The notes below the pieces were generated by a model, which did no database searches, had not been told where the DNA came from, and worked only from the letters and a program-made list of their open reading frames with translations. Positions 3,190-58,441 of a DNA stretch of 64,000 nucleotides are shown in pieces; position 1 is the stretch's first letter, and every line of letters starts with the position of its first letter. The translations under genes and the position numbers were made by a program. Source of the DNA: Escherichia coli. GTDB taxonomy: Bacteria > Pseudomonadota > Gammaproteobacteria > Enterobacterales > Enterobacteriaceae. The stretch lies in the NCBI RefSeq assembly GCF_013122565.1, contig NZ_CP053258.1; one strand, given 5' to 3'.

Positions 3190-3375
3190 AGGGAATCTCC
3201 GAGATGCCGCCGCAGGCTGTAACCCTTGAACCCTTGGTTCAAGGTGAATGTGTCGTCGCAGTTTTAAGGCTTCTCGGACGGACCGAGCATGCTCACCAAC
3301 CGCGGAGCGCCACATTCTTGTGGTATGAAATATCGGCTCAGGGGACTGGCCCGCTTGCGAACATCTCAGAGAAAT
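3190..3375 (-). ncRNA. ssrS: 6S RNA
   Basis: plus strand carries the reverse complement of the 6S RNA sequence (5' AUUUCUCUGAGAUGUUCGCAAGCGGGCCAGUCCCCUGAGCC ... GGAGAUUCCCU 3'); immediately upstream of ygfA as in the known ssrS-ygfA operon. Confidence 0.9.
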
Positions 3376-3416
3376 TTTGTCTTCACGGTTACTCTACCAC
3401 AGTAAACCGAAAAGTG

Positions 3417-3812
<396 letters not shown>

Positions 3813-26966: not shown

Positions 26967-27401
26967 CAGTGTTTCTCCTTTCGCCCGCCAGAGTAAAAAG
27001 CAACCGTTTACGTTAATGAAACTGTCTAAACACATGCTCGTGGAGTGCCAGTTTTTGCGAGGAAGGGGAGTTAGAGACAGGAATTGCGGAGGCAATCACA
27101 TAATCGTGCTTAAACCACGAAAATGACAAGAGAACCTGACAATGGAATTATCTGTAATTTTCTCATATTGATATTTCATTAATCATTCTGGCATGTCGCA
27201 CTCTCGCATTTAATCGTTTTTATCTGGATAGCGCTCTTTTGATCGGCAATGTTGAAATAATGAAAGCGGCATAGATTGAGGGGCAATAATTTGAACTCAG
27301 TCGCAAAATTATAATTAAAACGGTCATGCTACCTAATATATGCCCGTTTATTGCATCGCGAAATTTGAGAAGACATAACTCATTAAATGAAAGGGATGCA
27401 A

Positions 27402-34146: not shown

Positions 34147-37017
34147 TTATATTTTTTCCAGCGCAGTGAGTATTTTCTCCGGTGTGAAATGCCATTCGCG
34201 TAACCAGATGCCGCAGGCATCGTGAATTGCGGTAGCAATCGCCGGAGCTGCGCCATTTACACCGATTTCCGAGATCGATTTCGCCCCGAACGGGCCGACT
34301 TTATCGTCGCTCGGCACCAGCACAGCGCGGAAATCACGCGGAATGTCACCAATTTTCGGTGCGCCGTAACTGCGTAAATCACGCGTTAACGGGTGACCTT
34401 CGGCGTCATAAATGATCTCTTCGCTCATACTGTGGCCGATAGCACGCAGGGTGGCACCGTAGATTTGTCCCAACGCTAACTCTGGATTGACCGGTGTACC
34501 GCAGTCCAGCAAGGCGTAGAATTTATCCAGGCTGATTTCACCCGTACGCGTGTTGACGGCAACTTCAGCGAAGTTTGCGCCATACGGGAAAGCGAAATCA
34601 GGCGTGATATAACTGCCAGTTCCCACCAGTGAACCAAAGCCGGTGCCGGTTTCGCCTTTATGGGCAATATCCCCGAAACTAACTTCGCCTTTCTTGCCGC
34701 GCACGACGCCCGGCGTTGCTAGTTGAACATCTGCCACTGGCTCACCCAACATTTGCGCGCCGTGGAACAGAATTTTCTCCCGCAGATTTTCCGCTGCTAA
34801 ACGCGCCGCGTTACCCGAGAAGCAAGTACCGGACGAGGCATATGCGCCTTTATCAAACAACGCATGATCGGTATCACCGGAGATAACATGCACGTCCTGT
34901 GGTGGGCAGTGCAGCACTTCTGCTGCCAGTTTCGTCACCACAGTATCCAGACCAGTACCAATATCCGCACCGCCAGAATGAACAATAAAGGTGCCGTCCG
35001 ATTCCAGTTTGATCATGCAGTTAGCCTGATCGATATCCGGGATACCCGATTTCTGCATGATAATGGCGACGCCGCGACCGATGTGCCAGTCACCATTTTG
35101 CGGTTTCGGTGACGACCATTGGATCATCTCGCGACCCTGACGCAGGATCTCTTCCAGTGCGCAGCTGGCGGCGGAAGGAACGGAGGTTGGCGCTTTACCT
35201 TCACCGATTGCACCGAGAATTTTCAGCTCTTGCCCTTCGTGTACCCGGTTACGTTCGATAATTTCCAGTTGGTCGATCTGTAACTGTTCAGCCAGTTCCG
35301 CTAATGCCATGGTGATAGCGAAGTTACCTTTCGGTGCGCCATAACCCTGATAAGCACCATTTGGGCAAATGTTGCTGTAGTAGGTGGTGACCTGGAAATC
35401 GACGTTATCGCACGGATATAACGGCAGCGACAGCGCCGGTCCGTTACATGGTACGGTGAGTGAGTGGTTGCCGTAAGGGCCAGTGTTGGCGCGGAAATCC
35501 ATCTTCACTGCCGTCAGGCGACCATCTTTTTTCGCTCCCAGTTTGACGGTGACTTTCGCGACGTGACGAGAGGTGTTAGCAATAAACTCTTCTTCACGGG
35601 TGTAGCGGAACAGTACCGGACGCCCGGTCACGCAGGTTGCCCAGGCGCACACTTCTTCCAGCAGGATGTCCTGTTTGGAACCAAAACCGCCGCCAACTCG
35701 CTCTTTAATGACATGAACTTTATGCTGTTTCATGCCCACGAGGCGCGCGACCTGGCGGCGTAAGTGCCATGGTACCTGGGTGGAGGCGTGGATAACCAGA
35801 CGATCGCCGTCCATACGAGTAAAGCAGATATGTGTTTCAGTCGGGCACTGCTGCGCCTGCGTTGAGTTATAGGTTCGCTCAATGATCACATCGGCATCGG
35901 CAAAGCCTTTGTCCATATCGCCAATATGACCATGAATACTGGCGGCGATATTTTTGCGTGGACGAGAACCGATCGGGAAGTTGATGATCATATGCTCGCC
36001 GCGCTGGGCTGCATGGCTGTTATCGTCTTCCAGAGTATCTGGCGCACCAGCAACATACACCACCGGTTCATCGTGCACGACAGGCGCATCTTCCGCCATT
36101 GCTTCGTCGATCGACATTACCGGCTTAAGCACTTCATATTCAACGTCGATGAGCTTCAGTGCTTCGAGCGCAATTTCTTCACTTTCAGCGACCACCGCAG
36201 CAACGCGATCGCCGACGTGACGCATTTTCTTGCCGAACATACGGCGGTCAAGCGGTGACGGTTCCGGTGCGCTCTGCCCCCCCGGGGTATAGTAGATATC
36301 CGGGCAATTCAGGTGAGTAATAACGTGAACGACGCCCGGTAAGGCTTCAGCTTTGCTGACATCCAGATGAGTAATCAGTGCGTGAGCGTGTGGGCTACGT
36401 AACATTTTAATGACGCAGGCGTCAGCCGTTACGCGGTCTTCAACATAGCAGGGTTTCGCCTGCACCATTTTCGCGGCATCAGTTTTAGGATAATGCTTGC
36501 CAATGACGTCAAGGTCGTCACGGAAAGTCGGAGCGATATCAATGGTGGCCTGCGGATTATTTTTACGTGCAACCGCCAGTTCAATGACCTGATAGTATTG
36601 TTGCCAGCCTGCATCGCGGCTGAACAAACCAGAAAGCGCGTCGTCGATCTCTTCGCGGGTAGGTGCGGCGATACGATCGAGAAGATCGGTGATAATCAGA
36701 GCTGCAGCTGGATCGTTATAACCAGACTGCACCACGCCAACATCAACCATTGCCTGTTGAACCAGACTTAACTCGTTCCATTTGCCCAGAGATTCTGCGG
36801 TACGAATATCTGCCTTCTCTAACTGTGCGGCAATAAGCAAGGACGCGTTAACGATATTACCTTTAAAGATAATTGCGTCAGAACCGGCAAACCCAAAGCC
36901 ATCATCACTGTTGCGTACAGAGTGCATTCCCATGTTAAACAACAGATTCTGCACGTTTTCGCCTGGATTAACGGTTAGCTCCTGAGGCGCGCCATTTAAA
37001 GTAAAGTGGATGATCAT
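34147..37017 (-). CDS. xdhD: molybdopterin-dependent hydroxylase, fused [2Fe-2S] and Mo-binding subunit (xanthine-dehydrogenase family)
   Basis: 956 aa with N-terminal 2Fe-2S ferredoxin-like region followed by aldehyde oxidase / xanthine dehydrogenase Mo-binding domains. Confidence 0.9.
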   Translation of the reverse strand: MIIHFTLNGAPQELTVNPGENVQNLLFNMGMHSVRNSDDGFGFAGSDAIIFKGNIVNASLLIAAQLEKADIRTAESLGKWNELSLVQQAMVDVGVVQSGYNDPAAALIITDLLDRIAAPTREEIDDALSGLFSRDAGWQQYYQVIELAVARKNNPQATIDIAPTFRDDLDVIGKHYPKTDAAKMVQAKPCYVEDRVTADACVIKMLRSPHAHALITHLDVSKAEALPGVVHVITHLNCPDIYYTPGGQSAPEPSPLDRRMFGKKMRHVGDRVAAVVAESEEIALEALKLIDVEYEVLKPVMSIDEAMAEDAPVVHDEPVVYVAGAPDTLEDDNSHAAQRGEHMIINFPIGSRPRKNIAASIHGHIGDMDKGFADADVIIERTYNSTQAQQCPTETHICFTRMDGDRLVIHASTQVPWHLRRQVARLVGMKQHKVHVIKERVGGGFGSKQDILLEEVCAWATCVTGRPVLFRYTREEEFIANTSRHVAKVTVKLGAKKDGRLTAVKMDFRANTGPYGNHSLTVPCNGPALSLPLYPCDNVDFQVTTYYSNICPNGAYQGYGAPKGNFAITMALAELAEQLQIDQLEIIERNRVHEGQELKILGAIGEGKAPTSVPSAASCALEEILRQGREMIQWSSPKPQNGDWHIGRGVAIIMQKSGIPDIDQANCMIKLESDGTFIVHSGGADIGTGLDTVVTKLAAEVLHCPPQDVHVISGDTDHALFDKGAYASSGTCFSGNAARLAAENLREKILFHGAQMLGEPVADVQLATPGVVRGKKGEVSFGDIAHKGETGTGFGSLVGTGSYITPDFAFPYGANFAEVAVNTRTGEISLDKFYALLDCGTPVNPELALGQIYGATLRAIGHSMSEEIIYDAEGHPLTRDLRSYGAPKIGDIPRDFRAVLVPSDDKVGPFGAKSISEIGVNGAAPAIATAIHDACGIWLREWHFTPEKILTALEKI

Positions 37018-37793
37018 ACGGCTTCCTCCCCAGCCTGTTGGCAGTCGGCATACAGGTCGGCTACCAGAACTCCCGTGATATAGCGTTTATAGGCCACGCT
37101 GCCCCGCAAATCTTCCTGCGGGAAAATGGCGTTGGCGACAGCCTGTTCAAGTGCATTGCCTTCCAGATTTTGTTTTTCGACATCGTGCAGACGCAGTGCT
37201 TTACTGGCGACGCCATCCAGCGCAATTCGCATACCGTCGTGGTCTGTCATTGCAACGGCAGCCGTCACGACGGTTAAACCTGCCTGAGAACGGCTAATTT
37301 TGCGGGTCGCACAGGTACGATACGGATCTTTAATGATAATTTCAGTTAGCAGGCGATCGCATGGGCAGGCCAGGTAGTCCTCGATTGACAGCGTTTCGCC
37401 GTTGCCAAAAACCAGTTCAGCATCCAGTGCCAGCAGGACGGGAAGCAGCACCGACTCTTCCTGCCGGGCAGCGATTTCACCACCAATGGTCGACTGATTA
37501 CGAACATGGCGTGAGTAAACAAAACCGAGAGCTTCACGCAGTGCTGCAGGAATAAATCGCGCATCACGCAGTGGCTGCAAGCGAGACATTGCACCAATCC
37601 GCAGTGCACCGTTATCCCAGTCAACCCAGTCCAGTTCCAGATCCTGTAAGGAAATGGCAATCTTTTTATCGGTACGGGTTGGTGTAGCGTTGAGTTTGCT
37701 GCCCCCGGCGAACCAGACGGCTTCATCCTGGTAGCGGCGCTTCAGTTCCAGCGCCTGTTCGACAGAGTCGGGCCTGAAAAATTGTTCAATCAT
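37014..37793 (-). CDS. ygfM: FAD-binding subunit of a molybdo-hydroxylase (CoxM/XdhB-like)
   Basis: 259 aa; stop overlaps the xdhD start. Confidence 0.85.
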   Translation of the reverse strand: MIEQFFRPDSVEQALELKRRYQDEAVWFAGGSKLNATPTRTDKKIAISLQDLELDWVDWDNGALRIGAMSRLQPLRDARFIPAALREALGFVYSRHVRNQSTIGGEIAARQEESVLLPVLLALDAELVFGNGETLSIEDYLACPCDRLLTEIIIKDPYRTCATRKISRSQAGLTVVTAAVAMTDHDGMRIALDGVASKALRLHDVEKQNLEGNALEQAVANAIFPQEDLRGSVAYKRYITGVLVADLYADCQQAGEEAV

Positions 37794-37843: not shown

Positions 37844-39172
37844 TTATGCCAGCGCATCCATCCGACGCCACATACTGGCAGCGGCTTTTCTGGCTTGTGC
37901 ATAAATGGAATCGCAATCGAAGTTAAACTGACGGTCTTCATAGACCATCACACCATTGACCATCACGCTGTGAACGCTGCCTGAGCCCATACCGAAAGCG
38001 ATATGCCCGGCGATATTGTCTGCCAGCAGCGGCGTCGGCGAGTTGTAATCGCAAATGGTTAAATCAGCTTTGTAACCGGCTTCCAGAAGCCCAAATTTCG
38101 CGCCAAAGTTGCGACTCATCAGTTCGTTACCGTTAGTCAGGGCTTTGGCAAAACTGTCAGGCCACAGCGGACCACCCGCATCGCGATGTTTAAAGAAGGC
38201 AAATTTCATCTCTTCAAACATGTCCGAACCAATGCCGTCCGTTCCCAACGCCAGATTGCGGATGTCGCTAAGGTGATGGTTGTAGCCGACATGGTTGTTC
38301 ATGTTTGAACGGGCGTTATGCACCAGGAACGCATCGCGCTGATTGAGTAGGGCGATGTCATCTTTCGACAAGTACAGCCCATGAGCGACCAGCGTTTTGC
38401 TGTCGATGAGATCGAATTGCGCCAGTCGTGCCAGCAGGTCTTTGCCGTACCTGTGGTGACTGTAGGAAACGTCGTAAAGGTCTTCCGCAGCGTGAATATG
38501 CAAACCACGGCCTGTGGCTTTCACGGCTTCACGCAGCATCTCCAGACCGGCATCTGGCACGGTAAACGGTGCGTGAGCGCCGATATGTGCTTCCACCAGA
38601 TACGGCTCGGTTGCTGCTTTCTTCGCCTCATCAATCTGACGGGCGAAGCGGATGTTTTCTTCTACACCTTCCTGCAACTCTTTGATGCCGTTGTTACGGT
38701 CAGTAGTTTCAAAACAGGTCATCGCGCGCAGGCCAACTTTTAAAAATGCGTCGCGCAATGTGGAGAGCGACCCGCCGATATACGCCGGAGAGGCATGGTG
38801 ATCGATAACCGATGTACATCCGCTCTTAATCGCTTCCAGGGAGCAAATCAGCCCGCTGTAATAGAGCGACTCTTCATCAAGGGCGCGATCGAGCCGCCAC
38901 CAGAGATTTTTCAGCGTTGAGATGAAATCCGGGCAGGGGGCGATGTTTGCCATAATTCCGCGGGAAAGCCCCGAGTAAAAATGGTTGTGCGAGCAGACAA
39001 TTCCCGGCATCACAATCCGACCATGCATCTCTTTGTAGCTGGCATCGGGGTAGCGTTGCGTCAGGGCATCTCCGATAGCGACAATCACATCATTTTCGAT
39101 AGCGATATCAACGCCTTCCTGCACTTTCGCCGGGTGTAACTGCACTGCGGTGACATTCTTCAGAATCAACAT
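37844..39172 (-). CDS. ssnA: amidohydrolase-superfamily protein (chlorohydrolase / deaminase-like)
   Basis: 442 aa with metal-binding HxH near the N-terminus (SHNHFYSG). Confidence 0.85.
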   Translation of the reverse strand: MLILKNVTAVQLHPAKVQEGVDIAIENDVIVAIGDALTQRYPDASYKEMHGRIVMPGIVCSHNHFYSGLSRGIMANIAPCPDFISTLKNLWWRLDRALDEESLYYSGLICSLEAIKSGCTSVIDHHASPAYIGGSLSTLRDAFLKVGLRAMTCFETTDRNNGIKELQEGVEENIRFARQIDEAKKAATEPYLVEAHIGAHAPFTVPDAGLEMLREAVKATGRGLHIHAAEDLYDVSYSHHRYGKDLLARLAQFDLIDSKTLVAHGLYLSKDDIALLNQRDAFLVHNARSNMNNHVGYNHHLSDIRNLALGTDGIGSDMFEEMKFAFFKHRDAGGPLWPDSFAKALTNGNELMSRNFGAKFGLLEAGYKADLTICDYNSPTPLLADNIAGHIAFGMGSGSVHSVMVNGVMVYEDRQFNFDCDSIYAQARKAAASMWRRMDALA

Positions 39173-39174
39173 GA

Positions 39175-42100
39175 TTACACCTCCACGCGGCCCAGCAGAT
39201 AATGATGATGCTGGTGGACATGGCTAATAATGCGGCACATATCGTTCAGCTCATGTGGTACGTTGTTGAACTGACCTTCGCTGTCGATGTTTAACACCCA
39301 GCTTTGGTTATTCAGACGCACTCGTACCCGGCAATCTTCCACAAGGAAGCCTGGGTTGCTGCTGTTATCAAAGTCTTGCGCCAGGCTGAAGACGGTGATT
39401 TTGTCTTTGTATGGTTTACCGTTCCACGGACAGAACTGAGCGCAGTTGCCGCATTCGTTACAGTAAGCGTCGAGGTGCAGCGTCTGGAATCTATTCTGGA
39501 AGCCTGGGACCGCAATGGAGACGTTGGCGCGGTTCGGGCAGACATCCACACACTTGCTGCAAACGTAGTTACATTCGAGGCAGCGAGCGGCTTCCTGGGC
39601 GACAAACGCGTCACGATCGTCACTGTTCACCAGCGTGATAGAGATATCGCCTTTACGTTGATAGATTTCCGCCGGATTGACGTTGTTCCAGTATTTATCG
39701 TTCTGGTGGGAACGGATATTTTCCCGACTAAGGATGGCATCGGTCGCCCGACGCGCGGTTCCGACAGCAGCGACAATGGAGGATGGTCCGCGCTGTACGT
39801 CGCCGATCATAAAGACGTCAGTCAGACGAGTTTCGCCATTATGGTCGACGTCTGGCCAGCCGTTTTTGTCCAGCGGCACGCCCATCGCATTCAGGGCTTC
39901 AGTATCCTGCTGTTCACCAATGGCGGTGATCAGGCTGTCTACATGCAGTGTTACTGTTTCGTTGGTTTCAACCGGACGACGACGACCTTTCTCATCCGGT
40001 TCGCCAAGCGACATAACGCGCAAGGTTAAGGTGCCATCAGCATCGAAACGTTCCGGATTGTTCAGGAAACGGAACTCCACGCCGTCGTGCAACGCTTCTT
40101 CATACTCTTCGCGCCATGCGGGCATCTCTTGCAGTGAACGACGGTAAACGATCGTTGCTTTTTCTACGCCTGGAACGCGTAACGCCGCACGAGCGCAGTC
40201 CATTGCGGTGTTACCCGCCCCGACAACGACCACATGTTTGCCCAGCTTGAGCGCTGTACCCTTGTTGTATTCACGCAGGAAGGGGAGTGATTTCCAGACA
40301 TTTTGGTTGTCGCCCGCCAGTTTCACACCGCTATTTTTATCAGTGCCGGTGGCAATCAGAACATAGTGGAAGCCCTGATTTTTTAACTGTTCAACGGTCA
40401 AATCGGGTGAGCAGCCATACTCAAATTTCACGCCGTGAGCGGCAACAAAATCGATATCGTGCTGAATTAACTCTGCAGGAATACGGAACTGAGGGATGAT
40501 ATTTTTCACCACGCCGCCCGCATTGGCTTCGCGTTCAAACAGCGTAACCGGATGGCCCGCTCTGGCAAGGAAGTAACCTGCAGCCAGACCCGCCGGACCT
40601 GCACCAATCACGGCAACCGGATGGCGTGAACCAGAACCGGCTGGTTTGTGCCAACGTTGCTTATATTCATCCCAACCTTTTTCCAGCGCGACTTTTTTCA
40701 GTTCGCGGATATTCAGTGCACTGTCGTAATCCAGGCGGGTACAGTTGTATTGGCACTGGTGATCGCAAATATGACCGGTAATGGCGGGCAGGGCGTTGCG
40801 TTGGTAGATAAGTTCCAGCGCGTCGGCATAGCGGTGTTCGCCAAGCAGACGGATGTATTCCGGAATATCTTGCTTGATAGCGCAGGCAGTAACACAGGGG
40901 GCAACGTAGCAGTCGGTCAGCGGCAGGTCTTCTGCCACTTCAATACGCTCTTCTGGCTTCCAGTGTTTCTGGGTGTATTCCATGGTTAGCGCGTCTGCTG
41001 CCAGTCTGTTCAGTCGTTCGACGTCAACATGGTCAAGTCCCCAGGCGTCGGAGCCTTCCAGCTCGCGCATGCAGGCACTTAAGCGCAGATAGCCACCAGG
41101 TTTCAGCAGATCGGTTGCCATAGTAATAGGGCGAATACCAGTATCAAAAATATCGCGGATAGTCAGCTGACTGGCACCACCGGAATAAGAAATGGGCAGT
41201 TTGCCGTCAAAGGCGCGAGAGAGAACTGCTGCAACATTGATGGAGAGCGGGAACAGCGCACGGCCTGACATATACATCTCTTCACCGGGCAGTGCGCCTT
41301 TATTGTTGATGGTGCCGAGAGTGTTAGTCAGTTTTACGCCAAAGCCGAGTGATTTTTCTTTTGCCAGTGCCATCAGGCGTTCCAGCATTTCCAGCGCTTG
41401 CGTCAGCTTGAGGTCGTGATCAAATGACTCTTCTTTTAAGCCTATGTAACCGAAACCGCAGACATCGAGGATCTCACGAACACGCGCGTACCCCAGTAAG
41501 GTCGGGTTAAGTTTCACAAAGGTGTTGAGCCCTTTTTCTTCCAGCATGTAGCGGCAAATGGCTTCGATTTCATGCGGAGGACAGCCGTGCATGGTGGAGA
41601 GGGTGACGCCATGCACCATACTGGTGGGGATGCGAGCGGGTAAGGCTTGCAAGCTTTCGCGTTTTTCCTGCAATCCGTGGCGAGCTAAAAATGCGTCATC
41701 CTGGAGTAATTTATTCAGCGTATCGCGATATTGAGCGAATTTCGGATGGTCAGATGCGTCCATCATATTGTCGATGAACTGTTGCATCGGCGGTTGCTTA
41801 ATACCTTCGAGGTTGTAACCGACGCTCATATTAAAGATGAACGATTTACCGGAATCAGAAGGCTGGAACATCGCTTCGAGAAGGTGCAGGGCAAACCAGG
41901 CTTTGAGGTATTCATCCCAGGCTTTAAGCAGGGTAAATTCGGTAGACCATTCGGTGTTAAAACACTCGTCTTCGGCATCGATACAGGGCTTTTCCAGCTC
42001 CAGGCGGTCAAGAATTTGGACGGTTTTTAGTTCGATGAAGCGTCCGCCAGTCAGCCAGGAAGTGACAATATTTTGCGCGAGCTGCGTGTGCGGGCCAGCG

Positions 42101-42273
42101 GCAGGGCCGACGGGAGTGGCACAGGTTTCACCGAAGACGCTAACAGTTTTACCTTTTACGGGTGAGTAAAACTGTTGCTCGGGAATACCAAAGATTGAGC
42201 GTTGTTGTTGGTATTCATCAAATATGCGCGTCAAAAGTTCCTCAAACGGAATGGGACGCATAATATCCCCCAT
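39175..42273 (-). CDS. ygfK: large Fe-S flavoprotein oxidoreductase (GltD-like domain plus ferredoxin-like C-terminus)
   Basis: 1032 aa; dinucleotide-binding [21 protein letters not shown] and VVVVGAGNTAMDC; C-terminal Cys clusters. Confidence 0.9.
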   Translation of the reverse strand: MGDIMRPIPFEELLTRIFDEYQQQRSIFGIPEQQFYSPVKGKTVSVFGETCATPVGPAAGPHTQLAQNIVTSWLTGGRFIELKTVQILDRLELEKPCIDAEDECFNTEWSTEFTLLKAWDEYLKAWFALHLLEAMFQPSDSGKSFIFNMSVGYNLEGIKQPPMQQFIDNMMDASDHPKFAQYRDTLNKLLQDDAFLARHGLQEKRESLQALPARIPTSMVHGVTLSTMHGCPPHEIEAICRYMLEEKGLNTFVKLNPTLLGYARVREILDVCGFGYIGLKEESFDHDLKLTQALEMLERLMALAKEKSLGFGVKLTNTLGTINNKGALPGEEMYMSGRALFPLSINVAAVLSRAFDGKLPISYSGGASQLTIRDIFDTGIRPITMATDLLKPGGYLRLSACMRELEGSDAWGLDHVDVERLNRLAADALTMEYTQKHWKPEERIEVAEDLPLTDCYVAPCVTACAIKQDIPEYIRLLGEHRYADALELIYQRNALPAITGHICDHQCQYNCTRLDYDSALNIRELKKVALEKGWDEYKQRWHKPAGSGSRHPVAVIGAGPAGLAAGYFLARAGHPVTLFEREANAGGVVKNIIPQFRIPAELIQHDIDFVAAHGVKFEYGCSPDLTVEQLKNQGFHYVLIATGTDKNSGVKLAGDNQNVWKSLPFLREYNKGTALKLGKHVVVVGAGNTAMDCARAALRVPGVEKATIVYRRSLQEMPAWREEYEEALHDGVEFRFLNNPERFDADGTLTLRVMSLGEPDEKGRRRPVETNETVTLHVDSLITAIGEQQDTEALNAMGVPLDKNGWPDVDHNGETRLTDVFMIGDVQRGPSSIVAAVGTARRATDAILSRENIRSHQNDKYWNNVNPAEIYQRKGDISITLVNSDDRDAFVAQEAARCLECNYVCSKCVDVCPNRANVSIAVPGFQNRFQTLHLDAYCNECGNCAQFCPWNGKPYKDKITVFSLAQDFDNSSNPGFLVEDCRVRVRLNNQSWVLNIDSEGQFNNVPHELNDMCRIISHVHQHHHYLLGRVEV

Positions 42274-42594
42274 AACCCTCTCCTTAGCTTATACAGATAT
42301 CATTGAGTGACCGGTGTTGAGAAATCCGGTGGTTTAGGGGGATAGAGCAACAATCGCACCACTCTTGCCAGGTTTGGCGGGAAATATAAAAAAATGTGAG
42401 GCGGCTCGAAACTTAAGGGCTTTTTGTGAATGAACTCACAGGTGCCAAATGAGAATTAAAATCACTCCTGAAAATTATTATTGCCAGCCCATTTATCACT
42501 TTTTCTCTTTTCTCAAAATTAGTGATTCCTTATCATTATGATAAAGAGTGCTGGAGGGGTTAAATATTTGAACGCAATCGTTTAACTACGTTTT

Positions 42595-43173
42595 CTAAAT
42601 TTCAGTATACCTTTTCTTCGCTGTAATAAAGTCGTCCGGAGTATCAATATCTAAAATTATTTCTGCATTTTCTATTTCGACGGAATAATGATCTCCCATA
42701 AGGAATGCCTGACGCATATTGGTGACATTGGGTCGCTGGAATGCCTGCATCAAGCATGGTTTTGACACTAAAATCGGATGGCCGGGGATGCCATTATGAA
42801 GTGGCAGTATTGCGCCATCATTTCGTAACGACCAGATTTTTCTAAAAATATCAATGGTGAGGGTTGGCATGTCACCGTGGGTGAGAAAACAATGTTCTGT
42901 TTGCACTGCGGGTACTGCGGCCTTGACTGATGTTAGTAAACCCTGGGCATAATCTGGGTTGTGAATAATAGTGATATTACTCTGGTTCGCATAACGTTCG
43001 TGCAGTTCATTACCACGATAGCCGGTGACTAAAATAATTCGGCTACAAAACTGCAACGCATTTTTGATACTTGTATCAAGAATTGTTCCCTGTTGCCAGG
43101 GTAACATCATTTTCCATTGCCCCATTCTTGATGATAATCCGGCAGCGGTAATTATACAGTCGATGGCTGACAT
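42595..43173 (-). CDS. mocA: molybdenum cofactor cytidylyltransferase (MobA-like)
   Basis: 192 aa MSAIDCIITAAGLSSRMGQWKMMLPW, nucleotidyltransferase motif. Confidence 0.85.
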   Translation of the reverse strand: MSAIDCIITAAGLSSRMGQWKMMLPWQQGTILDTSIKNALQFCSRIILVTGYRGNELHERYANQSNITIIHNPDYAQGLLTSVKAAVPAVQTEHCFLTHGDMPTLTIDIFRKIWSLRNDGAILPLHNGIPGHPILVSKPCLMQAFQRPNVTNMRQAFLMGDHYSVEIENAEIILDIDTPDDFITAKKRYTEI

Positions 43174-43275: not shown

Positions 43276-44046
43276 GTGAAAAGTATAGTTGACCCATCGG
43301 CATTATTCATTGATTTAGGTGCACAGAAACGTCCCACTGTGATTTCTGTTGTTGGTGCTGGGGGGAAAACCAGCTTGCTTTTTTGGCTGGCAGAACGGCT
43401 CCAGACTAGCGGCAGGCGTGTGTTAATCACGACGACGACACATATGTTTATGCCAACGTCACACTGGCCCGTGGTTTTCTGTCGTGATCCCGCCATGCTT
43501 CCTCATGCGTCTCTTACATCCCCCATTTCATTTTGTTTTCACAGCTGGAAAGCGAACCAGGGAAAAGTGCAGGGATTTACGCCAGAAGCGATTGATGCAC
43601 TGGTGCAACGACCAGAGTGTGACGTAATTCTCATTGAAGCAGATGGCTCGCGTGGAATGCCGTTAAAAGCCCCTGATGAGCACGAACCTTGCATACCCAA
43701 AAGCAGTTGCTGCGTGATTGCTGTGATGGGAGGACATATTTTGGGCGCGAAAGTGAGCACAGAAAATGTCCATCGCTGGTCGCAGTTTGCTGATATTACC
43801 GGGTTAACACCTGATGCAACCTTGCAACTGAGCGATCTCGTTGCGCTGGTTCGCCACCCTCAGGGGGCGTTTAAAAACGTACCGCAAGGTTGTCGGCGAG
43901 TCTGGTTCATTAACCGTTTTTCTCAATGTGAGAATGCGATTGCGCAAAGCGAGCTCCTTCAACCGCTGCAACAACACGACGTAGAGGCAATCTGGCTGGG
44001 CGATATACAAGAACATCCTGCAATCGCGCGCAGATTTGTGAATTAG
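43276..44046 (+). CDS. yqeC: YqeC-family accessory protein of selenium-dependent molybdenum hydroxylases (P-loop)
   Basis: 256 aa with Walker A-like VVGAGGKTS; paired with yqeB. Confidence 0.85.
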   Translation: MKSIVDPSALFIDLGAQKRPTVISVVGAGGKTSLLFWLAERLQTSGRRVLITTTTHMFMPTSHWPVVFCRDPAMLPHASLTSPISFCFHSWKANQGKVQGFTPEAIDALVQRPECDVILIEADGSRGMPLKAPDEHEPCIPKSSCCVIAVMGGHILGAKVSTENVHRWSQFADITGLTPDATLQLSDLVALVRHPQGAFKNVPQGCRRVWFINRFSQCENAIAQSELLQPLQQHDVEAIWLGDIQEHPAIARRFVN

Positions 44047-49624: not shown

Positions 49625-50821
49625 TTAAGGTGCTACAGCGTGTTTGCCTTCCCAGACAACTTCGCGGTAGTGCTTCACGTCGGTGTCGCCTTCAGTGCTG
49701 ATAACCAGCACTACGGCATCTTTGTTCAGCGCCAGTTTTTGCATCAGGCTTTGACGTTGCGGGTGATAATGAACCGCCGCGAGAACGCCCAAACCGACAG
49801 CGCCGGATTCACCGGAGATGATGCGCGGGTCGTTGCCGTACGGATTACCCAGCACGCGCATACCTAATGCGGCAACGCTGTCCTGGCAGGAGATGAATTG
49901 GGTGGCGCAGTTACGTAGGATTTCCCAGCCCAGCGGGTTAGGTTCGCCACAGGCCAGGCCCGCCATGATGGTGGCCATATCACCGCCAACGTTGACGATG
50001 TCGCCTTTGACGCCGGAGCGATAAATACAGTCAGCTTTGTCAGGTTCAACAATAATGCTGTGCAGATTTTGCGGGCTGTAGACGTCGACCAGATAACCCA
50101 GCACACCACCGGCCATTGCACCGACACCGGCTTGCAGCAGAACGTGTGTCGGGGTTACGCCCATTTCACGCATTTGCTCGACGGCTTCATCTGCCAGTGT
50201 TGCGTAGCCTTGCATGATCCAGGTTGGGATTTTAGTGTAACCTTCCCATGCCGTGTCCTGTACCACTTCCCAGCCGTGCTGCTGCGCGTGTTGCATGGTC
50301 AGGCGAACGGTATCGTCATAGTTCATATCCGTGACGATGCACTCGGCACCGAGGTTCAGAATGGCGTCAACGCGTTCCTGAGCAGAACCTTTCGGCATGT
50401 AAATCACCGCATTCTGTCCGAGTTGCTGTGCTGCCCACGCCACACCGCGCCCGTGGTTGCCGTCGGTGGTGGTCGCGAAAGTCATTTTTTCGCCGATGGC
50501 ATTTTTCAGGTGCTCAAATGACAGCGTTTCGATATCAAGATGATATTTTTCACACAATAATTGAGCGATGGCGTACGCACCGCCGAGCATTTTGAAGGCG
50601 TTCAGACCGAATCGTTTTGATTCGTCTTTGACGAGAATTTTCTTCACACCAAAAAGGTTTGCGAGATCGTCCAGCGCACAAAGCGGTGTTGGGCGATAAC
50701 CAGCTATTTTCTGGTGGAACTGGCGCGCCAGTTTGGCCTGGCTTTGCGAAAAGAGCGGTGATGTTTCGCCGTTGAAAAATTTGTTATCGGCGATATCAAT
50801 CTTCAATGAGAAAACGGACAT
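49625..50821 (-). CDS. ygeX: 2,3-diaminopropionate ammonia-lyase (PLP-dependent)
   Basis: 398 aa, tryptophan-synthase-beta-like PLP fold; the alternative name for this gene is dpaL. Confidence 0.9.
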
Positions 50822-52069: not shown

Positions 52070-52544
52070 AAAGTCCCGGTAGTGGAATGACAGGCAAAGT
52101 GGTTTATTTCACTGTGACTTGCCAAAGTGATTGGTGTTTTCACAGCTATACTTGGGACTAACAATAAGTGTGCCAGAATTATCCACGGGGCTGCAAAAGA
52201 CTAATTTGACGGATAATGTGTGGGGTTGATCACAAATTGATGCCAGCTTCCGGTTGTTTGTAAAATACGAAAACGTTTGGCTTTTTTTATCGCGTTATTT
52301 ATTTGCTGCTAAGTATCAGAAATAAGATAAAGGGGCAGGCTATCCCTCGTCAGTTTGATAAACTCACCGCCGTAATTCTCATATTGATATAGAAATGTGA
52401 TATCTCTTCCATAATTTCATTAGAAAGTGATAAAAATCTTATGTTTTTATCAAAGCCAATTTCGCCTGAGTTAATATCATCATGATCTGTGAACCATCAA
52501 CGTCTTCAATGATCGACTTTTAAGTAAGTCTGGAAGGTAAAGCT

Positions 52545-54323
52545 ATGGAGCTTGCTACTACGCAGTCAGTATTGATGCAAATTCAACCGACAATTCAGCG
52601 TTTTGCCAGAATGCTTGCCAGCGTTTTGCAGCTTGAGGTTGAGATCGTTGATGAAAACTTGTGTCGCGTCGCCGGAACTGGCGCGTATGGGAAGTTTCTT
52701 GGTCGCCAGTTGAGCGGCAACTCACGCCTGCTCCGCCACGTCCTGGAAACGAAAACTGAAAAAGTTGTGACACAGTCTCGCTTCGATCCCCTTTGTGAAG
52801 GTTGCGATAGTAAAGAAAATTGCCGCGAAAAAGCATTTCTGGGTACGCCTGTCATTTTACAGGATCGTTGTGTTGGGGTGATAAGTTTGATTGCCGTTAC
52901 CCACGAGCAACAAGAGCATATTAGTGATAATTTACGCGAATTTTCTGATTACGTTCGCCATATATCCACCATTTTTGTTTCGAAACTTCTGGAGGATCAG
53001 GGACCAGGAGATAACATCAGTAAAATATTCGCGACCATGATCGATAATATGGATCAGGGCGTATTAGTTATTGATGACGATAATCGGATTCAGTTTGTTA
53101 ATCAGACAGCCTTAAAAACACTCGGTGTTGTGCAAAATAATATTATTGGGAAACCTATCCGTTTCAGACCATTAACATTTGAGAGTAATTTTACCCATGG
53201 ACATATGCAGCATATTGTTTCGTGGGACGATAAAAGTGAGTTAATCATTGGTCAATTGCATAACATTCAGGGCCGACAATTATTTTTAATGGCGTTTCAC
53301 CAATCGCATACCAGTTTTTCTGTAGCAAATGCACCTGATGAACCGCATATTGAACAATTGGTTGGCGAGTGCCGTGTTATGCGGCAATTAAAACGACTCA
53401 TTAGCCGTATTGCACCCAGCCCATCCAGCGTTATGGTGGTTGGTGAAAGCGGCACGGGTAAAGAAGTCGTCGCCCGTGCAATCCATAAGTTGAGCGGAAG
53501 ACGGAATAAACCCTTTATTGCTATCAACTGTGCCGCGATTCCGGAGCAGCTTCTGGAGAGCGAACTGTTCGGTTATGTTAAAGGCGCATTTACTGGCGCT
53601 TCTGCCAACGGTAAAACAGGGTTGATTCAGGCGGCGAATACGGGCACGCTGTTTCTCGATGAAATAGGTGATATGCCATTAATGTTGCAGGCTAAATTAC
53701 TGCGCGCTATTGAGGCACGTGAAATTCTGCCGATTGGTGCCAGTAGCCCAATACAAGTCGACATTCGCATCATTTCTGCAACTAACCAGAATTTGGCCCA
53801 GTTCATTGCAGAAGGTAAATTCCGCGAAGATCTCTTCTACCGACTTAATGTTATCCCGATAACTCTGCCACCGCTGCGTGAACGTCAGGAAGATATTGAA
53901 CTACTGGTGCATTATTTTTTACATCTGCATACCCGTCGTCTGGGATCGGTTTATCCGGGCATTGCTCCCGATGTCGTCGAAATATTGCGTAAGCATCGTT
54001 GGCCCGGAAACCTGCGCGAGTTAAGCAATTTGATGGAATATCTGGTTAACGTGGTTCCTTCAGGTGAAGTTATCGACAGCACGCTATTGCCGCCAAATCT
54101 GCTGAATAATGGCACAACGGAGCAAAGTGATGTAACAGAGGTCAACGAGGCGCACCTGGCACTCGATGATGCGGGCGGCACGGCGCTGGAGGAGATGGAA
54201 AAGCAAATGATCCGCGAGGCGCTTTCACGTCATAACAGCAAGAAGCAAGTTGCTGATGAACTGGGCATCGGCATTGCTACGCTCTATCGCAAGATTAAGA
54301 AATATGAGTTGTTAAACACATAA
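52545..54323 (+). CDS. ygeV: sigma54-dependent transcriptional activator (bacterial enhancer-binding protein)
   Basis: 592 aa; AAA+ core with Walker A GESGTGKE and the sigma54-contact GAFTGA motif; C-terminal HTH; N-terminal sensory region. Confidence 0.9.
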   Translation: MELATTQSVLMQIQPTIQRFARMLASVLQLEVEIVDENLCRVAGTGAYGKFLGRQLSGNSRLLRHVLETKTEKVVTQSRFDPLCEGCDSKENCREKAFLGTPVILQDRCVGVISLIAVTHEQQEHISDNLREFSDYVRHISTIFVSKLLEDQGPGDNISKIFATMIDNMDQGVLVIDDDNRIQFVNQTALKTLGVVQNNIIGKPIRFRPLTFESNFTHGHMQHIVSWDDKSELIIGQLHNIQGRQLFLMAFHQSHTSFSVANAPDEPHIEQLVGECRVMRQLKRLISRIAPSPSSVMVVGESGTGKEVVARAIHKLSGRRNKPFIAINCAAIPEQLLESELFGYVKGAFTGASANGKTGLIQAANTGTLFLDEIGDMPLMLQAKLLRAIEAREILPIGASSPIQVDIRIISATNQNLAQFIAEGKFREDLFYRLNVIPITLPPLRERQEDIELLVHYFLHLHTRRLGSVYPGIAPDVVEILRKHRWPGNLRELSNLMEYLVNVVPSGEVIDSTLLPPNLLNNGTTEQSDVTEVNEAHLALDDAGGTALEEMEKQMIREALSRHNSKKQVADELGIGIATLYRKIKKYELLNT

Positions 54324-58080: not shown

Positions 58081-58097
58081 GGCAAGATTTACGCCAG
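58081..58097 (-). promoter_or_regulatory. candidate sigma54 -24/-12 promoter upstream of xdhABC
   Basis: minus-strand sequence cTGGCgtaaatcTTGCc with GG-N10-GC spacing, about 95 nt upstream of the xdhA ATG; sigma54 activator gene ygeV is adjacent. Confidence 0.35.
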
Positions 58098-58441
58098 AAA
58101 CGACGATAAGCGTTAAGGGAGGAAGGAAGTGTGATGATGTTAAAAAAAACACAGATATGATACGAAACAGGACCCTGAATAGGGGCAGTGATACGTATCA
58201 ATATGAGTGGCGATAAAATCAATGTGATAAATTGGGATTATTACGCATCAGGATGGGAAATAGGGTAAATGAGTCAGGAAATTCGATACCTCTACAGTGA
58301 ATATTTTGCTGATGATACTTCCCTTTGCCAAATGAAATTAATCTCTTTCTCTATTACTGCGTTTTTCCAGAAGCAAGAGATTGGGTATCAAGAGGCTGGC
58401 TGCTATGATATGGCGTCTTGTTTTTTAAGCGAGGAAAGATT

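Follow-up and report, generated by a model that had tools for sequence, protein, structure and literature searches.

A sigma54-binding site upstream of ygfK in Escherichia coli: very probable promoter of the uric acid operon ygfK-ssnA-ygfM-xdhD, with candidate YgeV and CRP sites

Promoters of the prpBCDE type combine sigma54 and a dedicated activator with a need for cAMP-CRP, which results in catabolite repression. The ygfK-ssnA-ygfM-xdhD operon of Escherichia coli is responsible for the first steps of reductive, anaerobic uric acid degradation: XdhD and YgfM convert uric acid to isoxanthine, and YgfK and SsnA carry out ring reduction and cleavage. The sigma54 site upstream of ygfK is already known, having been mapped in 2015 by ChIP-seq in strain MG1655 as the high-stringency site OS31 (Bonocora, Smith, Lapierre & Wade 2015, PMC4591121). 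That site has its peak at 3014019, a fold-above-threshold value of 26 and a motif centre at 3014001; it was assigned to ygfK, with 62 bp from the predicted start to the ATG, and was marked ‘P’ (predicted in EcoCyc) (PMC4591121). The sites upstream of xdhA (OS29) and ygeW (OS30) appear in the same table, and the term ‘binding site’ was deliberately chosen over ‘promoter’ (PMC4591121). These two and ygfT (OS32) are sister promoters of ygfK, being likewise sense-oriented, intergenic sigma54 ChIP sites (PMC4591121), with genes that are co-expressed with ygfK. The sisters differ from ygfK and from one another in the −24 box, which is TGGCGT at xdhA, TGGCAC at ygeW and a very weak ATGCCC at ygfT, and the ChIP score of ygfK is the highest of the four (26, versus 11, 3 and 3).

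A sigma54 regulon with orthologous targets, that of DioR, has been described in Clostridiales and includes ygeW-ygfK-ssnA-ygeY, yqeB, yqeC-ygfJ and xdhABC (Nie et al. 2019, PMC6615313). Like ygfK, it combines a sigma54 promoter with TTATCA-N3-TGATAA enhancers, but it belongs to another phylum, its operon order is different and CRP sites are unreported there (PMC6615313). The enhancer given in the supplement of Nie et al. 2019 for C. botulinum ygeW-ygfK-ssnA-ygeY, ATTTATCATAATGATAAGG (PMC6615313), is one flanking base apart from the corresponding E. coli ygfK site, CTTTATCATAATGATAAGG.

The window, i.e., the whole 64-kb stretch of DNA analysed here, comes from the E. coli chromosome: of 5426 complete E. 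coli genomes, 5171 are matched by a 701-nt query that spans the site, with mocA and ygfK as the annotated genes. Positions 42274 to 42594 are exactly the 321-nt intergenic region between mocA and ygfK, whose layout is the same in the K-12 record, and the ygfK ATG lies at 42273 on the minus strand (Table 1). The element of the window, GTGGTGCGATTGTTGCT, and OS31 of K-12 are the same object: the 17-mer, the downstream gene, the 62-nt distance and the surrounding 61 nt are all identical (PMC4591121). K-12 and 4483 of the 5426 complete genomes carry this 61-nt promoter core with 100% identity. Between the window and K-12 (locus L081, positions 1292 to 1612) there are seven intergenic substitutions, all of them outside or between the conserved blocks and none in the core, and these differences constitute a small within-species footprint.

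Table 1. Coordinates in the window of the ygfK promoter elements, the neighbouring genes and the related sites
Feature	Position	Strand	Basis or remark
Sigma54 −24/−12 element GTGGTGCGATTGTTGCT	42362..42346	−	GG at 42360-42359, GC at 42348-42347; matrix, ChIP-seq and conservation
Predicted transcription start	42335	−	19 nt downstream of motif centre 42354; rule of Bonocora et al. (PMC4591121)
Proximal half-CRP-like site TTCGAGCCGCCTCACA	42395..42410	−	Centre −67.5; 30 bp from distal site; putative factor
Distal CRP-type site TGTGAGTTCATTCACA	42440..42425	−	Both half-sites perfect, TGTGA-N6-TCACA; centre −97.5 from predicted start
Conserved 21-nt box GAGTGATTTTAATTCTCATTT	42447..42467	−	About 90% conserved from Escherichia to Morganella
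Conserved box TTTTGAGAAAA	42508..42518	−	TGAGA half-site about 24 bp downstream of palindrome centre; 80-90% columns in 25-sequence alignment
Candidate enhancer (UAS) palindrome TATCATAATGATA, 13 bp	42543..42531	−	Perfect match to TATCA-N3-TGATA; conserved; probable YgeV site
Palindromes before sigma54 sites	27161..27173 (ygfT), 42531..42543 (ygfK), 52377..52389 and 52475..52487 (ygeW), 58217..58229 (xdhA)
ygfK Shine-Dalgarno AAGGAGAG	42278..42285	−	>90% conserved in alignment
ygfK CDS, 1032 aa, first gene of ygfK-ssnA-ygfM-xdhD	39175..42273	−	ORF list; RefSeq annotation of matching genomes
Genes downstream of ygfK, tightly spaced	37844..39172, 37014..37793, 34147..37017		ORF list
mocA	42595..43173	−	ORF list
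Sigma54 motif, xdhA	58097..58081		Matrix score 15.5
Sigma54 motif, ygeW	52176..52160		Matrix score 13.75
Sigma54 motif, ygfT	27339..27355
ygeV	52545..54323	+	No other sigma54 activator is encoded in the cluster

A first-pass annotation of this DNA, made from its letters, had tentatively placed a sigma54-type element here, and its reading of the motif was confirmed. The plus strand at 42347 to 42361 is gcaacaatcgcacca, and its reverse complement, TGGTGCGATTGTTGC, has GG at positions 2 and 3 and GC at positions 14 and 15, i.e., the GG-N10-GC spacing, or equivalently TGG-N8-TTGC. The motif is in the sense orientation with respect to ygfK. Its placement upstream of the ATG also stands, at a distance of 74 to 88 nt rather than the 75 to 90 nt given earlier.

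A position weight matrix had been proposed as a check on the motif. Tables 1 and 2 of Bonocora et al. 2015 list 135 motif instances; a log-odds matrix was built from them after the five sites located in the window had been held out, which left 130 ChIP sites for training. The ygfK site scores 14.23, close to the median of the training sites (14.4) and at their 47th percentile, and ranks second among the ∼128,000 positions of the window (both strands, 2 × 64 kb). It stands between xdhA and ygeW in score, and these three top-scoring positions are all intergenic and sense oriented, before xdhA, ygfK and ygeW. The earlier concern that the −24 box (TGGTGC) is imperfect proved unfounded: a T follows TGG in 26 of the 135 validated sites, 8 of which have TGC at positions 5 to 7, and TGGTGC is a normal variant.

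A match of this kind could in principle arise by chance and lack function. Bare TGG-N8-TTGC occurs 12 times in the window, which is within chance (13.7 expected from shuffles), and a matrix score of ≥14.23 is expected about 1 to 2.3 times per 2 × 64 kb by chance. Against this, only 0.0024 such matches are expected on the sense strand of the 321-nt intergenic region in which the site lies, and the same 17-mer is occupied in published ChIP-seq data. The site is therefore above chance by its intergenic sense placement, its place among the top three scores, its conservation in 79 of 80 loci (see below) and the ChIP-seq signal on the same 17-mer.

Conservation was assessed by scanning one genome per species, which yielded 80 ygfK loci, and by seeking the best matrix match in the 500 nt before ygfK at each locus. 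TGG-N8-TTGC is the best match in 79 of the 80, with scores of 11.6 to 19.9, and these loci span Enterobacterales, Morganella, Aeromonas, Photobacterium and Betaproteobacteria; the remaining locus, in Ideonella (L074), has no such motif within 500 nt before ygfK. In the 79 motif-bearing loci, the element lies 57 to 130 nt from the ygfK start codon, save in one (L042), where the distance is 233 nt. TGG and TTGC are invariant in all 78 distinct orthologous upstream regions, and TGG is followed by T in 39 of these and by C in 39. The upstream neighbour of ygfK differs from locus to locus (mocA, yqeC, a divergent yqeB-like gene, or xdhC), which indicates that the sigma54 element travels with ygfK and not with the neighbour. 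The invariance of GG and TTGC over four bacterial orders and two classes of Proteobacteria, together with the ChIP-seq data, effectively refutes the chance reading, to which we attach a negligible probability.

An overlapping register, TGGCAAGAGTGGTGC (42370 to 42356), lies 9 nt further upstream and was printed for ygfK by Zhao et al. 2010. It has the same GG-N10-GC spacing and a better −24 box (TGGCAA), and sites 9 bp apart are beyond the resolution of ChIP-seq. It is nevertheless very unlikely to be the functional element: it scores 8.2 versus 14.2 for the downstream register, and it has GTGC in place of TTGC as its −12 box. It is also confined to Escherichia and one close Citrobacter, with a median score at that offset of −17.5 over the 78 distinct loci, and MEME in the study by Bonocora et al. 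picked the downstream register (PMC4591121). TGGCAAGAGTGGTGC was rejected on its low score and lack of conservation; the conserved register is that of the first-pass annotation and of Bonocora et al., at 42361 to 42347, as judged from the sequence comparisons.

Published ChIP-seq of the identical sequence shows that sigma54 holoenzyme occupies the site in vivo. Occupancy might still be nonproductive, with a sigma70 promoter, or read-through from mocA, as the source of the ygfK transcript. Bonocora et al. note that most sigma54 sites hold inactive holoenzyme and that many are perhaps not promoters (PMC4591121). The mocA-ygfK gap has no terminator-like structure and includes a weak sigma70-like match at 42563 to 42535, and the ygfK start site is a predicted position only. 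Several observations weigh against nonproductive binding and make it improbable. First, the site is sense oriented at a canonical distance from ygfK and is kept in 79 of 80 loci, including those that lack mocA or have a divergent gene upstream. Second, ygfK mRNA responds to rpoN: in the microarray study of Zhao et al. 2010, the changes were modest, with a 2.4-fold decrease of ygfK when rpoN was deleted and a 2.1-fold increase after sigma54 induction. Most of the 22 candidates of Zhao et al. were judged false by Bonocora et al., and ygfK is among only five that were confirmed (PMC4591121). Third, an enhancer-type palindrome is held at helically phased distances upstream (see below). Finally, sigma70-like matches number 2 versus 1.5 expected, which is chance level. 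For a sigma70 promoter between mocA and ygfK, a search gave only weak matches to the consensus, no more frequent than by chance; the sole terminator-like match falls inside the ygfK start region, and both kinds of candidate were rejected.

The YgeV iModulon, derived from RNA-seq co-expression, comprises ygfK, ssnA, ygfM and xdhD together with xdhABC, ygeWXY, hyuA, ygfT and uacT. Two data sets give the site no support. RpoN holoenzyme was used in one, an in vitro gSELEX screen whose list includes ygeV/ygeW and lacks ygfK. In the other, a 2026 preprint on massively parallel reporter assays, the YgeV iModulon promoters as a group had no consistent footprints. The main text of a paper on an RpoN ChIP-exo pipeline makes no mention of these genes. 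The literature searched yielded no transcription start data for ygfK. The first-pass annotation had proposed a sigma54 element for ygfK, which would place the xdhD operon under sigma54 control in common with xdhABC. Both proposals hold: the element is the same 17-mer as OS31, ygfK mRNA responds to rpoN as described above, and the two operons have ChIP sites (OS31 and OS29) and membership of the YgeV iModulon in common. We conclude that the element at 42362 to 42346 is very probably the sigma54 (RpoN) promoter of ygfK-ssnA-ygfM-xdhD, with control by YgeV and CRP as the best explanation of its regulation.

Between the centre of the palindrome TATCATAATGATA and that of the sigma54 motif downstream are 183 bp, which puts the palindrome centre at −202 from the predicted start. 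With at most one mismatch, the palindrome is present in 74 of 79 orthologous loci, versus 0.02 by chance, and its main spacings from the motif centre are −183/−184 and −162/−163, a 21-bp step equal to two helical turns. Among all 80 loci, 75 of 103 palindrome matches fall within 250 nt before ygfK, an enrichment of about 90-fold. The window contains six matches with at most one mismatch, versus 1.5 expected, and five of these are upstream of the four sigma54 ChIP sites, i.e., those of ygfK, xdhA, ygeW (two copies) and ygfT (P ∼3e−8). At the sister promoters, a TATCA-N3-TGATA-type palindrome lies 130 to 315 bp upstream of each sigma54 motif, and the enhancer distances differ from that of ygfK. 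The sixth copy, TATCAAGATGATA, is perfect and is situated inside ygeX at 50533 to 50545; no good sigma54 motif lies downstream of it, and it may be a chance occurrence or a distal enhancer.

The domains of YgeV are PAS, a Sigma54_activat AAA+ domain with GAFTGA at residue 347, and HTH_8, and a domain search detected no receiver domain. The protein has been renamed IsrR, for ‘indole-sensing regulator’, in a paper that calls it an ‘orphan response regulator’. No binding site for YgeV was stated in the literature searched. The palindrome TATCATAATGATA is probably the YgeV enhancer, and by the promoter type and palindrome that its operons have in common, the cluster of xdhABC, ygeWXY-hyuA, the ygfK operon and ygfT would form one sigma54/YgeV regulon. 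A reading of TATCATAATGATAA as a Fur box was rejected by eye: in orthologues, conservation is limited to TATCA and TGATA, and the spacers vary and often contain G or C. In addition, the orientation of the half-sites is opposite to that of the Fur consensus.

Two further conserved blocks lie between the palindrome and the promoter. Box TTTTGAGAAAA, with its TGAGA half-site, is possibly a second activator contact. The 21-nt box GAGTGATTTTAATTCTCATTT has no other copy in the window at up to three mismatches, so that nothing ties it to a regulon-wide motif, and it is not known to fit any regulator consensus.

The remaining conserved blocks resemble CRP sites. TGTGAGTTCATTCACA is the sole mismatch-free CRP match among five in the window at ≤1 mismatch, and the offset of this distal site is fixed at −78/−79 from the motif centre in most Enterobacterales. 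The proximal site corresponds to TTNGA-N6-TCAC, which is found in 61 of 79 loci, versus 0.007 by chance, and which is nearly always at −48 to −50 from the motif centre; the distance is 12 bp greater in Morganella and a few others. CRP targets reported from gSELEX include ygfK, ygeV<>ygeW and ygfT<>ygfU, and the uric acid degradation pathway is glucose repressed. The sister promoter ygeW has a one-mismatch CRP-type site at 52219 to 52234, in the corresponding part of the promoter. In comparison with the prpBCDE type, the proposed role of CRP at ygfK draws on sequence, gSELEX and the glucose repression of the pathway, and no IHF site was recognised by eye between enhancer and promoter in a comparison with WATCAANNNNTTR.

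Several highly conserved blocks in a 321-nt noncoding region might also point to a structured RNA leader or a small RNA rather than to protein-binding DNA. The region has no Rfam match at an E value of ≤1, however, and folding of the predicted leader is no stronger than that of shuffled sequences (z = +0.77). In addition, most of the conserved blocks are upstream of the predicted start, and they correspond, as DNA palindromes, to protein sites of known types (CRP and activator enhancer). An RNA element is accordingly a highly implausible explanation of the conservation.

We propose the following mechanism. Sigma54-RNA polymerase forms a closed complex at the GG/GC element, a step shown by ChIP-seq in K-12 on the identical sequence, and would await an ATP-dependent activator, most probably YgeV (IsrR). 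YgeV would bind the TATCA-N3-TGATA palindrome ∼180 bp upstream, to which conservation and regulon-wide co-occurrence point. Between enhancer and promoter, cAMP-CRP may occupy the perfect TGTGA-N6-TCACA site and perhaps also the half-site 30 bp downstream, bending the DNA and bringing the activator to the polymerase; this architectural role is suggested by sequence, gSELEX and physiology. Binding of CRP at the ygfK promoter would make the operon glucose repressible. Transcription is predicted to start near 42335 and to give a 62-nt unstructured leader; the rule of Bonocora et al., applied to the window, yields the same 62 nt as their tabulated distance (PMC4591121).

The likeness to the DioR regulon invites a broader reading, which we favour by a narrow measure: Firmicutes and Proteobacteria would have in common a uric acid control module made up of a sigma54 promoter, a PAS-AAA+-HTH activator and a TATCA-N3-TGATA enhancer, and YgeV would be the orthologue of DioR. 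[quoted passage not shown]

As a discovery, the sigma54 site itself adds nothing new. What is added to prior knowledge is the evidence on the register, the candidate YgeV enhancer at four promoters and the link to the clostridial DioR motif; these three points were not found in the literature searched and are modest extensions of known kinds. The gut-bacterial pathway of uric acid degradation is now being engineered into probiotic E. coli for gout, and in the published engineered strain the ygeV-ygeW control region alone was replaced. The ygfK promoter, with an enhancer and CRP sites of its own, constitutes a separate point of control, and its dependence on sigma54, an activator (probably YgeV) and CRP matters for any rational de-repression of the pathway.

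Additional sigma54 motifs were observed around yqeB. The intragenic site IS34 of Bonocora et al., TGAGCACGAACCTTGCA, is present in the window at 43677 to 43693 on the plus strand, inside yqeC and pointing at yqeB. Versions with higher scores (GGGGCACGAACCTTGCA) are found at the equivalent location in Edwardsiella, Enterobacillus and other loci, and yqeB is therefore probably in the same sigma54 regulon. Seven loci (L059, L061, L065, L072, L073, L076 and L078) have a short yqeB-like gene divergent from ygfK, and these have a second strong sigma54 motif (∼3317 to 3746, minus strand), e.g., AAGGCATGAAAATTGCA, in the opposite direction. In L061, L065, L076 and L078, this second motif has its intergenic region and palindrome in common with the ygfK promoter.
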